From a virus (lineage: Duplodnaviria > Caudoviricetes), in IMG/VR virus record IMGVR_UViG_3300020043_001384, positions 1 to 32,590 of that record: a stretch of DNA of 32,590 nt. One strand, 5' to 3'. Of the stretch, positions 3,372 to 29,615 are shown piece after piece; the first letter of the stretch is position 1; every line of letters begins with the position of its first letter. Made by a program: the position numbers and the translations under genes. The notes below the pieces were generated by a model that had not been told where the DNA came from, ran no database searches, and saw nothing but the letters and a program-made list of their open reading frames with translations.

Positions 3372-5311
3372 AGTTCTGCCATTGTTTTGAATTTGTTAGC
3401 TTGATTCTGAGCATTCGTTATGTCACTTTCTACTACTACTGCCTTGACAACCATTTCACCGCCTCCGTTAGCCTCTTGAGATGGTGTAGAACTAAGGTTA
3501 TTAGCGTTATTATTCTGACCGAACAGCGAAACATTAGGAGTTGCAGCCTGAGTTGATGTAGCAGAAGGTGCTGAAGGTGCGCCACCGCTAACAGAACCGC
3601 CAAGCGGAGGGGCTTTCTTTAGTGCAGCATATGCGGACGCAACCGCACTTAATACCGTTCCAATACCGGATGCAATATATCCTGCAATCAAGAAAGGTGC
3701 AGCAGGACCACCCGCAGCAGCAGCAGCCGTAGCACCCGCGATTACAGATGAAATAGCTTTAGCCGTGTCCGTTGCAATCTGAACAAGTGCAATAGTCTTT
3801 TGAAGTCCTGCCGTCTTAACCCCTGCCTGTGCAAGTAGCTGCTCAAGTCCTTGCAATCCTTTAACCAAGTCAGCACCTAGATTCAAACGTGCTTCTTTAA
3901 ATGCTTTTTCTTGGGCTAGTCTGTCAGCGTTTTCTTTTTCTCGCCTTGCTTTTTCAGCGGCAGCAGCCTCTTCGTTACGGGCCAAAAACTCAGCACGCTC
4001 AGCCTCTTCCCTTTCTTTTCTTGCAGCTTTGTCAGCTTCTAATATAGCGTTAGCCTCTTCAAGCTGCTTTTGATTTATAGCGTTTGCATCTTCAAACTCT
4101 TGCTGTTTAAGGAGTTCTATTAGCTTTATCTTTTCAGAACTTAGTAACTTCTCATTTGCTAAAGTGTCCTCAATTAGACGTTTATATTTTAGCTTATTTG
4201 CAGCGAGCTCCTTCTCTGCTCCATCATCCATTAATTCAATTTGCATATCTTCAATGGAGCGAAGTGCAGCAAGTCTTTCTTTAGCTTCTTCTTCTTGGGC
4301 TTTTTTAGAGTTTTCCCAAACTTTCTTTCTGTTTTCTTCGACTTTCTTAGCGTTCTCTTCTACTTTCTTTTTGTTCTCTTCTCGTAACGCTTCGAAGTCT
4401 TGTCCTGCTTCTCTGAGTGCTTTCTTTTGTTCGCTTAATGAATCCTTAAGTTTCTTTAAATCTTCATCTTCAAGGTCTCCTAATCTTTCGTGTATCTTTA
4501 TCTGCTTAGATAATTCATCTATACGAACCTGAGTAGTCTCAATTATATACTTCTGCTTTTGAGCCTCTGCGATTGCTACGTCTTTTCCTTGAATCTTAGC
4601 GAGTCTAATCTCGTGATCCATAGCATCAATCTTGCTTTCGCTAGTTTTTTCTAATGCCGCTAAAGTATCTTCACTCGCTTTGATTTGTCGTGCAGCAGAT
4701 TCTTCAGCAGCGTGTGCTGTAAGACCTAGCCAGTCCGTAAGCATCTTGAACCCTTCCACTACGGCATCAATAATTACCATTATAGCTTTAAATACCTTAC
4801 CGATAGCATCTAAAATCGGCTTAAGTATTCCTAGCTTATTCATTAGTAGAACAATGATAGCTACGATAGCAGCAATAGCAGCAGCAATTAGGAATATAGG
4901 GTTTGTAAGTAGGGATAGGCCTACCGACATAAACGCTTTGCCAACTTGAACTACTACAGTACCAAGCCCTTTTAAAGACTTCGCAATTACATCTCCGTTA
5001 ATTCCTTTGGCAGCAGAAGCAAATAACTTAGAACTTTCCGCAGCACCTTCAAAGTCAAGTGACATCAACTGACTACCCATTAAGCCTAAAGCGTTGTTAG
5101 TCTGCTCAAATGGCGAACCCGAAGCAAAGACCGCTACTCTTTCGTTAGCATCTTTTAATTGGTCAGATAATTCCCCTGCCTTAGCAGCAAGTTCCGCCAT
5201 TTGTTTAGGGTCAGTAGCCGAAGCAAGTTCTCCTTTAAGTTCTCGGAGTTCTTTCTTAATTTGGGCTATGCCGTTAACCTTTAACTCTATCGTAGATGTG
5301 TTCCCTGCCAT
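3368..5311 (-). CDS. Tape measure protein
   Basis: 647 aa Ala/Glu/Lys-rich helical protein with TNPIFLIAAAIAAIVA hydrophobic segment. Confidence 0.8.
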   Translation of the reverse strand: MAGNTSTIELKVNGIAQIKKELRELKGELASATDPKQMAELAAKAGELSDQLKDANERVAVFASGSPFEQTNNALGLMGSQLMSLDFEGAAESSKLFASAAKGINGDVIAKSLKGLGTVVVQVGKAFMSVGLSLLTNPIFLIAAAIAAIVAIIVLLMNKLGILKPILDAIGKVFKAIMVIIDAVVEGFKMLTDWLGLTAHAAEESAARQIKASEDTLAALEKTSESKIDAMDHEIRLAKIQGKDVAIAEAQKQKYIIETTQVRIDELSKQIKIHERLGDLEDEDLKKLKDSLSEQKKALREAGQDFEALREENKKKVEENAKKVEENRKKVWENSKKAQEEEAKERLAALRSIEDMQIELMDDGAEKELAANKLKYKRLIEDTLANEKLLSSEKIKLIELLKQQEFEDANAINQKQLEEANAILEADKAARKEREEAERAEFLARNEEAAAAEKARREKENADRLAQEKAFKEARLNLGADLVKGLQGLEQLLAQAGVKTAGLQKTIALVQIATDTAKAISSVIAGATAAAAAGGPAAPFLIAGYIASGIGTVLSAVASAYAALKKAPPLGGSVSGGAPSAPSATSTQAATPNVSLFGQNNNANNLSSTPSQEANGGGEMVVKAVVVESDITNAQNQANKFKTMAEL

Positions 5312-16448: not shown

Positions 16449-17847
16449 TTATAGCGTCAGTGTTTGCTAGTTTAATTGTGACCGTCTTTCTAATCAGCTT
16501 CTTGTTTCTTTGCTTCTCCACCTCAAAGCTATTGTCAGTAATAAGACAAGGATAGTAGCCTGTGTTCGTAACCAAGAAAGTCATAGGTGAAGTGATTAAC
16601 TGCTCAAAGTATTCTGCCATATCTTCTGTCATCCAGTTAGTGTTTAACTCAATTGTCTTTTCAACACTAGCTTTATACACCTTCATACCTTGCTCCTGTA
16701 CTAAGTACTGCCACCTTGAACCGCTAACATAACCTTCAAGCCTTTGGTTATAGGAGTCTCTACTTATTACACCTCTTTCATAGGCTCTAAGCTGAAAGGC
16801 AAACGAACTAAACGAGCCTAACCTATCTAAAAAGATTATCTGATAGTCCTCTACTCTACAACGTCTATCAATGTAAAATCTATATTTACGAGAATGCTGA
16901 GTACCTGCTGAGTTAGTATACCAAACGTCATACCATTCTGTGGTAGGTTTAATGTGGCCGGCTGAACCACTAACCACTATCGCAGGGTTTGCTGTTGCTC
17001 CGACGTTAGCTTGAAAGACATAGCTGTTAGCATTAGCTGCATACTTCAATACGTCACCTCCGCTATTCTGAAAGACTATAAAACCCGTGGTAACTCCTGC
17101 TGTACATAGGTTAAAGAATACCTCTTGTTCGTCCGTTATGTAGAAGGTATCAGGTTGATACGTTAAAAAGAAGTCATTGTTCATTGTGAGGATGTAGTTA
17201 TCCTCTCCGTATGAAGTGAAATCATTGTGAGTAAATGCACCATTAAAGACGTACTTGTTACTCTCCGTTATAATGTTTCTAGTGATGGTCTTTCTGTTGT
17301 CTGCATACTGCACCGTCCCGTCAATGGTTGCGTTCGTTACATCTGCCCATAAAGCACTGACCGTAAAATCAGTAGTACCCGTGATGCTTATCACCGTATG
17401 CAACCCTTCAAGCTGTGGATTAGCTACACCTCCATCTGCTTGAGCAATTAACACTTGATCTCCGACTTGATAAGAATGAGTAGCTGTTATCCTTACGTTG
17501 CCTGAATTATTTGTAAGAGAAGACGTATAAGCCACTCTAACAATATACTCTTCTCCTATCTTAACATCGTACTTGTAGAAGGAGTCAGTAGCTACAGCGT
17601 CCTCTGTTCCGTATTGAAATGTAAACGTAACCTTTGAACTCAACAACGGAGATAGGTCTAGTTCACCATATCCTGAGATGTTAGGTTGTACCCTATATTC
17701 TCCTATCTTGTTAGATGTGCCACTTTCGTAAACGTCAAAGATATACCTAAAGCCGTCTTCGTTATTGTTGGTAGAATCGTAGATAAACCGCAACGGGTTG
17801 TATGCAGGACTAAAGTCAAACGGCTCGGCTATCTTGGTCATTGCCAT
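16441..17847 (-). CDS. Tail structural protein (distal tail-like)
   Basis: 468 aa; FLDRLG.F..F, LNTNW, L..SP motifs; precedes hub gene. Confidence 0.65.
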   Translation of the reverse strand: MAMTKIAEPFDFSPAYNPLRFIYDSTNNNEDGFRYIFDVYESGTSNKIGEYRVQPNISGYGELDLSPLLSSKVTFTFQYGTEDAVATDSFYKYDVKIGEEYIVRVAYTSSLTNNSGNVRITATHSYQVGDQVLIAQADGGVANPQLEGLHTVISITGTTDFTVSALWADVTNATIDGTVQYADNRKTITRNIITESNKYVFNGAFTHNDFTSYGEDNYILTMNNDFFLTYQPDTFYITDEQEVFFNLCTAGVTTGFIVFQNSGGDVLKYAANANSYVFQANVGATANPAIVVSGSAGHIKPTTEWYDVWYTNSAGTQHSRKYRFYIDRRCRVEDYQIIFLDRLGSFSSFAFQLRAYERGVISRDSYNQRLEGYVSGSRWQYLVQEQGMKVYKASVEKTIELNTNWMTEDMAEYFEQLITSPMTFLVTNTGYYPCLITDNSFEVEKQRNKKLIRKTVTIKLANTDAINV

Positions 17848-21336: not shown

Positions 21337-21602
21337 ATGTTCTTCTTTTTGCGTGTCCTCTTTTTCTTAGGCTCTTCATTTAGTGCTTTTTGAATAACCG
21401 TTTCTATATCGTGCTTTTCAGGGTCGTACTCTGTGATTGGTTCGTGTTTTTCTACCTCCTCCACAAAGTAACTCAAGTCAGTGTGATGTTTAACCCTATC
21501 CATTAACTCAGGTGTGATATCACTCACTTTAATAGTGAACGTGTTTGAACCTACCCTAAACGATACTTGGCTGTTTTCAAATCCTTTTTTCGGTCTTAGC
21601 AT
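21333..21602 (-). CDS. Hypothetical protein with basic C-terminal tail
   Basis: 89 aa ending PKKKRTRKKK. Confidence 0.6.
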   Translation of the reverse strand: MLRPKKGFENSQVSFRVGSNTFTIKVSDITPELMDRVKHHTDLSYFVEEVEKHEPITEYDPEKHDIETVIQKALNEEPKKKRTRKKKNI

Positions 21603-22083
21603 ATTCTATTAATTTTTCTAGTATTTCGTTTTTATACTTCCAGGCAGAAGTCCTGTCTATCTTGAAGTGATTGCTCAAATCTCCGCTTGATCGTTTACCT
21701 CTGTCATAGTAGACCTCCCATATTATTTGTTCGTAACGGTCTAAAGTGTTTAGAAAGCCCTCCAAGAATATCTCCTTATCAACCATCTGTTCAATGTCTT
21801 GAGAGTAAGTAATGTCAGGTGCTTTCTCGTCTCCTATTGTTACGGCTTCTTTCCTTAGTGTCTGAGAATTATAAAATGAGAGTTCCGTGTTTATATAGTT
21901 AATTGCCCAAACTGGTATCTCTTGTTCTGTCTTTAAGTCCTTTCGACCTATCAGATAGAGGTAAGACGCAGACACAAGGGTCTCAGGTTCGATATTCCTA
22001 CCAAAGTAGCTTATCTTCTTTTTACTGACCTCTATTAAGAAGTCGTAATTTTCAGCGTAGAATTTATCTATTAAAGACTTCAT
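21577..22083 (-). CDS. ECF/sigma-70-like transcription factor (probable late sigma)
   Basis: Region-2-like helices (FYAENYDFL...ETLVSASYLYL) and region-4 HTH (LDRYEQIIWEVYY...LSNHFKIDRTSAWKY); likely start ATG 22083. Confidence 0.7.
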   Translation of the reverse strand: MKSLIDKFYAENYDFLIEVSKKKISYFGRNIEPETLVSASYLYLIGRKDLKTEQEIPVWAINYINTELSFYNSQTLRKEAVTIGDEKAPDITYSQDIEQMVDKEIFLEGFLNTLDRYEQIIWEVYYDRGKRSSGDLSNHFKIDRTSAWKYKNEILEKLIEYAKTEKRI

Positions 22084-22270
22084 ACCATTCGATAAACTGC
22101 TTGGCATAGATATGCCTCCTTACAGCCGTACACATACAATAGGTGACCTCGTTAGTAGGGTTGTACTTATTGTATATGTTCTTAGCCTTGATAACCGTCT
22201 TTTTAACGACTAACCCATCAGCGAACTGATCACGAAGCCTATCCATTATTATCACTTCTTCCTGCTCCAT
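22064..22270 (-). CDS. Hypothetical protein with CxC motif
   Basis: 68 aa, overlaps neighbours. Confidence 0.6.
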   Translation of the reverse strand: MEQEEVIIMDRLRDQFADGLVVKKTVIKAKNIYNKYNPTNEVTYCMCTAVRRHIYAKQFIEWYEVFNR

Positions 22271-27535: not shown

Positions 27536-28531
27536 TTAAAAAGGTAATCCATCGTCAAAATTATTATTAGGTTCTAGTGGTTTGTAAAACTCCTGCAATT
27601 CATTCGGTAGAATATTCCGTGTTTTCATCTCTCCTTTCGGTGCTGCATAAAGTTTATTATGTTGGTTTGGTGCAACTACATCAATGTCGTAATAGGTCAA
27701 AGTGTTTATATCGAAGTGTAGTTCACATTTTCCTATTTTACCAATCGAACGGGGCTTTATTTTGTTGAAGTGGATCTCTACCATATTGTGCATTACGTCA
27801 GGTCGATGAATAGTAATCATTGATTTTCCACTATTAAACCACTCCGAACCACCTTTTAAATCGTAAGGTGTAGGAACAGACCTTTGACCGTTTACTTTCT
27901 CTGTCAGTTTAGGGTGTATGATCGTGTGAAGATGTAGATTATTCTCCTCTGCTATATGGTTTCTATAAGGCAAACAATATTCCAAGTAAGTTGCATAACC
28001 TCCGTAAGTGTCGTAAGGATGGCTCAAGTCTTTCCAGCTATCAATCGAAGCTGTGTGAAGTCCTTCCGTCTTTTTGATGTGTGCTGCCATATCCCAAAAA
28101 TCCATTGGAGTCATCTTCGCTTTAACATCTACCTTAGTAAGCACCTTGAAATGTTTTGTAACCCATTCAATCTCCTTTTCAATATCTGCATCTGTGATCG
28201 TGTTAGGTTTTTTAGGGTCGAAAGATTTGCTCGTCTTCTTATGGATAAAGTCTGCAAGTATCTCAACATTGTTACCAACGTCAGGAAAGTAAATTAAGTG
28301 CTTCCATCCGTATAATACAGAAGTATTCATTAACAACTCCATCAACACTTGAGTCTTACCACTCATTGGAAATCCTGTCCAATCCGTACAACCTCCTAAC
28401 TGCATAGAATAATACTCATCTATCTTTTCAAATCCAAGATAAACCCCTCTTTCGTGGTAGTTATCCCTATACTCTTTTAGTTGTTTAAGAACGTCGCTAG
28501 GCTCCGTTACTTTAAATCCATTTAATCCCAC
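27536..28531 (-). CDS. DnaB/T7 gp4-like SF4 replicative helicase
   Basis: TGFPMSGKT Walker A, SIDSW, HP.K, YDLKGGS, KIKP..IG.IG. Confidence 0.8.
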   Translation of the reverse strand: MGLNGFKVTEPSDVLKQLKEYRDNYHERGVYLGFEKIDEYYSMQLGGCTDWTGFPMSGKTQVLMELLMNTSVLYGWKHLIYFPDVGNNVEILADFIHKKTSKSFDPKKPNTITDADIEKEIEWVTKHFKVLTKVDVKAKMTPMDFWDMAAHIKKTEGLHTASIDSWKDLSHPYDTYGGYATYLEYCLPYRNHIAEENNLHLHTIIHPKLTEKVNGQRSVPTPYDLKGGSEWFNSGKSMITIHRPDVMHNMVEIHFNKIKPRSIGKIGKCELHFDINTLTYYDIDVVAPNQHNKLYAAPKGEMKTRNILPNELQEFYKPLEPNNNFDDGLPF

Positions 28532-29253
28532 GGTGCTTTATATTTAGTCGGTTCATCTACTTGGTTTAAATATCTCTGAAAATTATCATTAGGTAAGAAG
28601 TGAGATGGTGCTATCATCTTGTTATCTAGTACCCATTGATTCTTACACATCATCTTGAATGCGTGTTCCCATTCGTGTGAGTGATATTTAAGTTTCTTAA
28701 GTTTCTTCAAATTATTCTTATCTGTATCTGATATAACCTTGAACTTACCTTCTATACCATTGTATTTAAGTTTCATTTGATTAAACCAAGTTAAGAAGCC
28801 ATCCACATCAATTTTCTCATCCTTTTTAGTATTAGAATCTTCTTCTTGTTCTTCTTCTTCTTCTTTTTCTTCTTGCGATAGAGTATCCATACTGTATATA
28901 TACTCTATCAATACTCTATTTTTCACTAGTTTAAGTTCTGATTCTATGCACTTTACAACTTTTGGGCTTGTAGAGTAGTTATATTTAGCCCAGTTCTTTA
29001 TTGCTATCTCATTTGTAGACTCAGAGAATCGAATTTTACCGAGTGAGGTGAAGTGTGATATTAGTTTATTCACCTTGTCTGAACTTATGTTTAAATCAAA
29101 AGCAATATGCTTCTTGCTTATCTCATAAATACCACATTGTTTAGTTCGTTCGTTTGTAAGTAGGTATAGATAAAACATCTTCTTATCACTATCCAATTCA
29201 CTAAAGAACGGATCAGACCAAATCTGTGTATGTACTTTTCTAAAAACTGCCAT
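28522..29253 (-). CDS. Replication initiator (wHTH, DnaD/replisome organiser-like)
   Basis: WSDPFF.EL, YLYLLTN, CGIYEI, NW.KYN N-terminus; acidic linker; F..YLNQ C-terminus; upstream of helicase. Confidence 0.8.
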   Translation of the reverse strand: MAVFRKVHTQIWSDPFFSELDSDKKMFYLYLLTNERTKQCGIYEISKKHIAFDLNISSDKVNKLISHFTSLGKIRFSESTNEIAIKNWAKYNYSTSPKVVKCIESELKLVKNRVLIEYIYSMDTLSQEEKEEEEEQEEDSNTKKDEKIDVDGFLTWFNQMKLKYNGIEGKFKVISDTDKNNLKKLKKLKYHSHEWEHAFKMMCKNQWVLDNKMIAPSHFLPNDNFQRYLNQVDEPTKYKAPWD

Positions 29254-29254
29254 A

Positions 29255-29461
29255 TCAATCCATTTGTGAGATTTGTTTCCTCAATTCCTTTGAAAACTTG
29301 ATAGCAGTAGATTTATCAAGAACAATAAACGCTTTTGGATAACCAAGACCTTCCTCAATGATAATTGATAATTCACCTCCAGCATTGTGAAAACACTCTA
29401 TCGTGTTTCCATCTGTTTCTGATTCTACACTTCCGCAGAACAATAATTTGACACTTGCCAT
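29255..29461 (-). CDS. Hypothetical protein
   Basis: 68 aa, LDKSTAIKFSKELR motif; between structured RNA and initiator. Confidence 0.65.
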   Translation of the reverse strand: MASVKLLFCGSVESETDGNTIECFHNAGGELSIIIEEGLGYPKAFIVLDKSTAIKFSKELRKQISQMD

Positions 29462-29502
29462 AACTTTATAAGCGTTTTAGGTCAACACATAACCTTTAAA
29501 TG

Positions 29503-29592
29503 AAAAACCCCATCTATCCACAAGGCTCCGACCTCTTGCTTCAAGACAGGGTTAATATAAATTCCTGTGGTTCTATTATGTCGGAGCGAACC
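29503..29592 (-). ncRNA. Structured RNA: two hairpins with complementary loops (kissing loop), terminator-like 3' end
   Basis: P1 GGUUC/GAACC with loop GCUCCGAC; P2 AACCCUGUCU/AGAUGGGGUU with inner CAAG/CUUG and loop GUCGGAGC; U-tract; TATATTTG box at 29599-29606. Confidence 0.7.
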
Positions 29593-29615
29593 TATACACA
29601 AATATAACGAGAATA

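Follow-up and report, generated by a model that had tools for sequence, protein, structure and literature searches.

A kissing-loop leader family ahead of replication genes in phages of Bacteroidota

Described RNAs closest to the leader

The P4 CI and P1 c4 RNAs are cloverleafs with two antisense segments, c4 pairing with a1b1/a2b2, and in IncI/IncB plasmids a repZ pseudoknot activates translation and is blocked by the Inc counter-transcript. Pedo-repair RNA (RF01715), a Bacteroidota RNA of about 205 nt, starts at a TAnnTTTG-like box and has a 5' word covarying with a distal word as well as a terminal hairpin (supplement alignment). According to the sections of the source that deal with the mechanism, the kissing loop of the guanidine-IV (mepA) riboswitch hinders terminator formation, which it opposes without strand overlap, and elongation of P2 shortens the linker (PMC11611296). 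P4 CI, in the portion of the account cited here, pairs with an upstream seqA and a downstream seqC and stops the replication-related genes by premature termination (PMC4825925). Protein-free read-through control is described for HK022 put, two stem-loops directly behind an early phage promoter that suppress distant terminators via the beta-prime zinc domain, as summarized in the passages of the source on put (PMC9378689). In "tug-of-war" antitermination, as outlined in the source, an upstream structure lying immediately before an intrinsic terminator suppresses it sterically with no shared strands (bioRxiv 10.64898/2026.06.17.733018).

The leader compared here with these systems lies in a 32,590-base virus record rated complete, the whole of which was analyzed and is referred to as the window. 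It spans 29606-29498 on the minus strand and comprises a promoter box, a hairpin (P1), a linker, a long terminator-type hairpin (P2) and a U-tract, with complementary words, X and X', in the two hairpin loops. Its features, and those of the genes behind it, are as follows.

29599..29606, minus strand: Bacteroidota -7 promoter element TAnnTTTG, TATATTTG, by sequence match to the published consensus
29569..29592, minus strand: hairpin P1, 5 bp with a 14-nt loop (GGUUC 29592-29588 / GAACC 29573-29569)
29580..29587, minus strand: GCUCCGAC, the word X of loop 1 and 5' side of the kissing helix
29574..29579, minus strand: unpaired 3' part of loop 1, 6 nt, AUAAUA (A..AUA in the family)
29554..29568, minus strand: single-stranded linker, 15 nt (13-16 nt in the family), with a UUAUU-like stretch near its 3' end
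29506..29553, minus strand: hairpin P2, consisting of a 10-bp stem (P2a), a 4x4 internal loop, an inner stem (P2b) and a 10-nt loop
29525..29532, minus strand: GUCGGAGC, the word X' of loop 2 and 3' side of the kissing helix, with a 2-nt AG before it
29498..29507, minus strand: interrupted U-tract, U5-C-A-U3, of a predicted intrinsic terminator
29472..29497, minus strand: second small conserved hairpin, stem 29488-29484 / 29476-29472, before the 68-aa gene
29255..29461, minus strand: 68-aa gene, ATG at 29461, predicted PUR/PC4-like fold, optional passenger of the cassette
28522..29253, minus strand: replication initiator or replisome organizer, 243 aa (phrog_6251, E 7e-40; phrog_1701, E 2e-30)
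27536..28531, minus strand: DnaB-type helicase, 331 aa (phrog_18375, E 6e-13; phrog_239, E 7e-10)

As in guanidine-IV, the loop of the first hairpin pairs with that of a second hairpin of intrinsic-terminator type, the evidence in the leader being covariation. However, the leader has a Bacteroidota promoter and a freely varying kiss of 6-8 bp that can occur in either order, and it precedes initiator, helicase, primase, HNH and small ORFs, whereas guanidine-IV precedes mepA and guanidine export genes. With P4 CI, as far as the cited account describes it, the leader shares a promoter, an upstream word and a complementary word in a structured RNA (PMC4825925). The likeness to seqA/CI/seqC extends, in some relatives though not in the window, to a downstream copy of X at the first gene, so that the comparison with P4 CI and P1 c4 made in a preliminary description of this DNA gains a third co-varying loop word at the start codon in those relatives only. 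Unlike P4 CI and P1 c4, the leader has a single loop word, its antisense hairpin is the intrinsic terminator itself, it does not match the C4 model (RF01695; PMC2864571), and its carriers look lytic. Its two stem-loops directly behind an early promoter recall put, from which it differs by a terminator-shaped second hairpin and by loops that pair. In contrast to the structure in the "tug-of-war" system, P1 stands 13-16 nt away from the terminator and binds its loop directly. Loop-based long-range pairing before a replication gene is shared with IncI/IncB repZ; in contrast to counter-transcript control of the IncI/IncB or pT181 type, no conserved TAnnTTTG-type antisense promoter was found, the opposite-strand box lacking a positional peak from -300 to +500 in 112 elements and being absent from the plus strand of the window between 24732 and 31875. 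The leader resembles Pedo-repair RNA in its host group, its box and the covariation of its words; in the latter, however, the published structure pairs the words in a nested multistem helix and not in a kiss, and no match was obtained even at E 10; the leader was rejected as a member.

Searches with Rfam 15 at the gathering threshold returned no matches in the window or in 36 related loci (20 + 16; cmscan), and at E<=10 only two chance matches, both outside the element, in agreement with the earlier view that the RNA is not assignable to a known family. The leader has a guanidine-IV-like topology and a partly P4 CI-like layout, and it falls outside each of these groups by the membership tests that can be run. 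No published description was found in the literature searched; motifs confined to supplements or subscription papers may overlap with the family. The leader family is real and undescribed in the sources searched, the new findings being a mirror subtype, the recurrence of the loop word at a third place, cultured carriers between which the cassette has been exchanged, and a loop code that is not fast-evolving.

The leader and its gene context in the window

The consensus of the Bacteroidota -7 element is given, in the part of the source used here, as TAnnTTTG with its G at position -5 (PMC6847099). Since the box represents this element, the RNA is a 5' leader, and the placement of the G at -5 predicts a start at about 29594-29593 and an end near 29500. 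By eye, the TAnnTTTG box also heads the element in loci picked by protein homology. The box, hairpin 1, the loop word and its complement had all been recognized in the preliminary description, and each is present in the sequence where it had been placed. The 10-bp stem with two G-U pairs (29553-29544 / 29515-29506) attributed to hairpin 2 likewise stands, but the inner stem, GCAAG/CUUGU, which had been given as 4 bp, has 5 bp counting one G-U. The internal loop between the two stems is 4x4 and purine-rich (UGAA/GGAU in the window). The U-run that had been placed ahead of the 68-aa gene, the initiator and the helicase is also there, with the U-tract at 29507-29498 and the ATG at 29461. P2 thus has a G+C-rich stem base followed by a U-tract, as intrinsic terminators do; a simple terminator scan does not call it, because the scan permits only loops of 3-8 nt and the apical part of P2 is unusually long.

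The X-X' kiss of the window has a computed free energy of -14.1 kcal/mol as a free duplex. A G+C-rich 8-nt loop match had been considered unlikely to arise by chance, and when the 104-nt stretch was shuffled 5000 times with its dinucleotides preserved, a distant perfect 8-nt complement with at least 6 G+C indeed arose only 3 times, and one of any composition 106 times; among the 12 pairs of 8-mers 40-75 nt apart in the window, only X/X' has at least 6 G+C. The pseudoknot-free fold is by itself not significant (z -1.28, 26 of 200 shuffles being equally good), and such a weak stand-alone score would suit an ordinary leaky terminator with a chance loop match. The probability of that reading is negligible, as it is refuted by covariation, along with the mirror subtype, the third copy and the shuffles. 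The window carries a single copy of the element, the next best hit of a model search having an E of 0.37, and no second copies or trans targets were found in it, the other exact GCTCCGAC, at 16997, sitting inside a gene.

All recognizable genes of the window are on the minus strand, and the order 3' of the leader is the 68-aa ORF, the replication initiator, the DnaB-type helicase and then NinG, ERF and exonuclease genes. The closest cultured relatives of the helicase are those of Flavobacterium columnare phages (47%). A co-oriented gene ends 10 nt upstream of the leader, and its transcripts could also feed through it. No integrase or repressor was recognized by eye in the ORF lists of the window, from which 15 early proteins were profile-scanned. 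No N-like gene was recognized among these 15 either, which, together with the two stem-loops right behind an early phage promoter, as in HK022 put (PMC9378689, in its section on put), would suit an RNA of the put type, which would bind RNA polymerase and let it run through terminators farther downstream. This is quite improbable, however, given that a canonical U-tract follows a G+C-rich stem base at the end of the leader, that its stems vary freely, and that the descriptions of HK022 put in that source mention no loop-loop helix (PMC9378689).

The 68-aa protein has no Pfam or PHROG match, and searches of Pfam, PDB sequences and the Atlas named no family. Its structure was modeled with a pLDDT of 94.5 (a first model was poor, pLDDT 54), and the top-ranked structures are Pur-alpha repeats and PC4, at scores below firm thresholds (Foldseek E 0.11, TM about 0.6); superposition of the model on Pur-alpha repeats, also below the firm threshold, gives Z 6.1 and rmsd 2.5 over 58 aligned residues. 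With these sub-threshold scores, the predicted resemblance to PUR/PC4 single-strand binders is a lead only. By eye, the small hairpin recurs ahead of start codons in the 68-aa family, where its stems differ in sequence yet still pair around a loop of 7-9 nt, and it is missing before initiator-first loci (0/41); considering the predicted fold of the protein, it may be an autoregulated translational operator. Since the first gene after the leader is the initiator in 51 and a small ORF, from one of several families, in 46 of 117 cases, the 68-aa gene is optional. In L121-L240, the slot between leader and initiator holds several unrelated-looking families of 55-80 aa ORFs, two of which (C5 and C12) weakly match the 68-aa profile. 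Elsewhere in the window, positions 1-115 are an exact inverted copy of 2358-2472, which lies in an endolysin-like ORF; the repeat is probably an artefact of assembly at the end of the contig. A 176-aa protein encoded at 21577-22107 (minus strand), ahead of the terminase region, has a weak sigma-factor match (phrog_351, E 3e-5) and is, from its sequence, a candidate late transcription factor.

Conservation, covariation and subtypes of the family

The decisive evidence for the leader is covariation in relatives. Conservation and loop-loop covariation had been named beforehand as the findings whose absence would count against the RNA, and both were found. Loci fetched by protein homology alone show the same upstream layout as the window, and a descriptor gave 47 matches in 45 of 120 loci as compared with 0, 0, 0, 0 and 1 in shuffled loci. 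A scan pattern that fixed the promoter, YYNAC, ANNATA, TGAA and GT and left the rest of the pairing free returned 120 of an estimated 520 viral stretches, of which 119 could be parsed into 99 distinct elements. The kiss is complete (8/8) in 90 of these 99, with 27 different loop-1 words, whereas permuted partners gave a mean of 6.5 and a maximum of 15. When two rows that are false matches (L143 and L214) are dropped, kiss positions 2-6 comprise 484 Watson-Crick pairs, 1 G-U and no mismatch in 485 cells. The inner stem P2b, unconstrained by the pattern, pairs 4/4 in 92 of the 99. All four helices covary, with a score of 0.72 vs 0.21 for shuffled and at most 0.16 for slid alignments, and both-side changes are seen at 25 of 27 pairs in a 62-row alignment whose rows were pre-selected for a 7/8 kiss. 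P1 shows both-side changes at all 5 pairs (alignment A2) and contains 552 Watson-Crick pairs, 7 G-U and 1 mismatch in 560 cells. The family is large, at about 520 viral stretches estimated for one subtype pattern, and its covariation is very strong.

Several dimensions are nearly constant in a set of 112 elements pre-selected for a 7/8 kiss. The distance from X to X' is 52-56 nt in all of them with a linker of 13-16 nt, the unpaired 3' part of loop 1 has 6 nt in 103 (a length partly fixed by the search pattern), and 6-8 U fall within 8 nt after the stem in 108. The UUAUU columns of the linker, which lie outside the search pattern, are conserved in 99-107 of 108 elements. G-U pairs are common only in the terminator stem and nearly absent from P1, P2b and the kiss; P2a contains 138 U-G, 22 G-U and 4 A-C type pairs (112 elements), a sense-strand polarity that marks an RNA on the minus strand.

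With respect to the genes behind the leader, 73 of the 77 loci with sufficient DNA have a replication-cluster gene no farther away than the fourth ORF. The first ATG lies at a median of 25 nt after the terminator stem, so that the terminator must be passed for the first gene to be made from the leader promoter. The "initiator" cluster is heterogeneous: it links to the window initiator, precedes the helicase and holds iteron-like repeats, and two of its representatives match only PHROGs of unknown function. What follows the leader in L130, L146 and L171 is not an initiator but a cluster for nucleotide metabolism, with a thymidylate synthase-like gene and its neighbors. No clear element was found before the distant initiator or helicase homologs of L049, L051, L052, L112, L119 and Riemerella phage PT33. 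A same-word metagenome scan gave 2 true relatives in 120 loci, both before HNH/NUMOD-like genes by eye.

The loop word is not hypervariable and changes no faster than the stems. In 108 elements, parsimony changes per pair amount to 8-10 for the kiss, 12-15 for P1, 13-16 for P2a and 16-18 for P2b, and between the closest pairs the kiss changes (0.28) like P2b (0.26). These rates weaken the reading of the loop words as superinfection-immunity or incompatibility codes under diversifying selection, for which the 27 words in 99 elements, whole-cassette replacement between near-identical phages and the P4/P1 precedent could be invoked. Furthermore, no lysogeny genes were seen by eye in the ORF lists of the window, none are reported for the cultured carriers in the genome descriptions consulted (PMC9304149), the leader is common, at >=99%, to 67 of the 70 records of one cultured type, and two samples of 150 near-complete genomes from the Flavobacterium group yielded no copy under strict filters that limited scoring to 26 candidates in each genome. 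An immunity code is therefore highly improbable, and the classic immunity role first envisaged is weakened by these findings as well as by the lack of a conserved antisense TAnnTTTG promoter in the 112 elements.

The kiss occurs in 6-, 7- and 8-bp variants. In the six-bp set, with 97 distinct rows from 120 loci, 41 of the 47 terminator-bearing rows are complementary. In a mirror subtype, hairpin 1 carries AA and a purine-rich word and the terminator a pyrimidine-rich word with an A-rich tail, the reverse of the window, and 9 of 9 distinct elements pair 8/8. This swap of the loops indicates that the kissing module is the conserved unit, whichever hairpin bears which loop. A loose type-B scan was mostly false and left 9 usable rows. 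The internal loop of P2 alternates between UGAA/GGAU and AGUA/GAA, the latter of which we take to be loop-E-like. The family also bears on a guanidine-IV-type ligand riboswitch, in which a metabolite or ion would stabilize the kiss. Its topology is the same, the AC/GU end of the type-A kiss is invariant and flanked by AR and A..AUA (at positions partly fixed by the pattern), and thymidylate-synthase genes follow in a few loci. Against this, kiss strength across the family is high (-9.4 to -14.1 kcal/mol), few unpaired bases are invariant across the subtypes, and the genes downstream are replication genes and not transporters or enzymes of one ligand, all of which makes a riboswitch improbable.

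A third copy of X stands 1-6 nt before the first ATG in 8 of the 41 six-bp-kiss elements, always as the element's own word, and in L420 and L423, which have the same downstream gene, the word differs at all three places together. It is also present in L097 and L103 and in 4 of 112 type-A elements, which are related and have a single word, compared with 0.18% for foreign words, and is absent from the window, from 33 of 41 six-bp elements and from 108 of 112 type-A elements. Owing to this copy at the start codon, X' has two alternative partners, as a switch would. Around type-A elements in general, neither X nor X' is clearly enriched (downstream, X occurs 7 times vs 3.6 on permutation, which is marginal).

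Variants of the leader are carried by the cultured Flavobacterium phages FCL-2, FCOV-F56 and FL-1, although the window element itself has no BLASTN match in cultured phages. In FCL-2 (9 records) a variant with a 7-bp kiss precedes the initiator gp54, the mirror type is found in FCOV-F56 and 69 further records, and in FL-1 the type of the window precedes an unnamed 183-aa gene, with the helicase about 1.7 kb further downstream. In FCL-2 and FCOV-F56 both flanks are nearly identical and about 0.8-1 kb, from the promoter to the end of the initiator, is replaced (L250:3053-3870 vs L253:1398-2390). Leader subtype and initiator type are shuffled and not fixed to each other (L117, L255), which counts against a DNA-level feature such as an origin, a single-stranded DNA fold or an initiator operator. 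While the inner P2 stem of FCL-2 resembles three iteron-like repeats inside the initiator gene, its score of 19.5 is within the non-cognate range (maximum 20), the leader-iteron match in 87 type-A loci is not beyond permutation, and the G-U pairs are strand-specific; the DNA-level reading is very remote and already largely refuted. The 9 matches obtained in GTDB all lie in MAG contigs 1.6-18 kb long, and 8 of them are also scored by the model. No RNA data are listed among sequencing runs containing the FCL-2-type stretch. The dyad of the inner P2 stem of FCL-2 (L250:3126-3150) is spaced as in the three repeats of gp54 (3491-3563), and an autorepression specific to FCL-2 is possible.

Candidate modes of action

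A cis attenuator or antiterminator had been suggested from the start and, as a reading of the sequence, would fit best. On balance, the leader is probably a transcription attenuator in which the kiss hinders closure of the terminator stem, giving read-through into the replication genes. P1 would fold first and present X, and X' would exit the polymerase about 20 nt before the U-tract and pair with X (about -12 kcal/mol as a free duplex); with X' made at this point, the kiss can form before the G+C-rich base of the stem. Because the linker has just 13-16 nt, this base could not easily zip during the kiss, which would thus be the ON state, and, if X were blocked, P2 would close and transcription would end. 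That P2 closure is sterically opposed is something we infer, and other observations count against attenuation. The kiss and the full P2 draw on separate bases, so that both could be present at once in the completed RNA, and an 8-bp G+C-rich kiss may be constitutive, in which case nothing would be left to regulate. The U-tract of the window is interrupted (U5-C-A-U3), transcripts of the gene ending 10 nt upstream could feed through, the third copy of X is missing from the window and from most relatives, and there is no universal antiterminator helix: ACAGG/CCUGU, which appears in folds of the growing chain of the window, was rejected as a conserved one, being present in 66 of 112 elements vs 50 by permutation.

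The weakest step of the attenuator proposal is its trigger, for which a P4-like feedback is put forward tentatively as first choice by analogy. Freed or trimmed P2 RNA would accumulate and cover X on new transcripts, as well as X at the start codon in relatives with a third copy, and the replication genes would then be expressed at first and turned down afterwards. Alternatively, the trigger could be a protein of the phage or host, or the speed of elongation. The pattern of the third copies suggests a repressor role for free X', the source of which could be a released and trimmed P2 hairpin; since the released RNA should kiss itself, a step in trans would need processing. For the conserved UUAUU immediately before the terminator stem, possible roles are those of a nuclease site, a pause signal or a triple-helix strand. 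It is conceivable, though doubtful, that one RNA of ~95 nt is leader, antiterminator, terminator and its own repressor, the kiss opening the operon and the P2 RNA later shutting it. If true, this would amount to a protein-free timer, built on a position-swappable kissing module, and to a word-specific phage-versus-phage exclusion signal in lytic Bacteroidota phages.

The chief rival to the attenuator is a compact, fully folded and terminated small RNA of ~93 nt acting in trans as a protein decoy, scaffold or polymerase ligand, with the replication genes made by fixed leak-through or from upstream promoters. It would be in keeping with the tight geometry, with P1, P2b and the kiss being nearly without G-U, with interchangeable non-canonical internal loops, with a two-loop module in either order and with the RNA having its own promoter and terminator. 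It is nevertheless unlikely, as the leader stays directly ahead of replication genes (73/77) and has been swapped together with the initiator between FCL-2 and FCOV-F56, and as the third copy at start codons needs a state with X' free.

The question touched upon is how lytic Bacteroidota phages, with no repressors or N-type proteins in evidence, set the timing and dosage of their replication genes. If the attenuator is true, kiss-versus-terminator control would extend from one ligand-binding riboswitch class to phage gene timing. The mechanism is directly testable, since the leader is found in cultured phages, FCL-2, the FCOV/FCV series and FL-1 being studied for phage therapy in fish farms. 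The family is also a natural source of orthogonal loop pairs from which RNA regulators for Bacteroidota could be built. In FL-1, a tRNA-like sequence with a long insert, unannotated in the record, is seen by eye between genes upstream of the helicase (L251:3000-3170).
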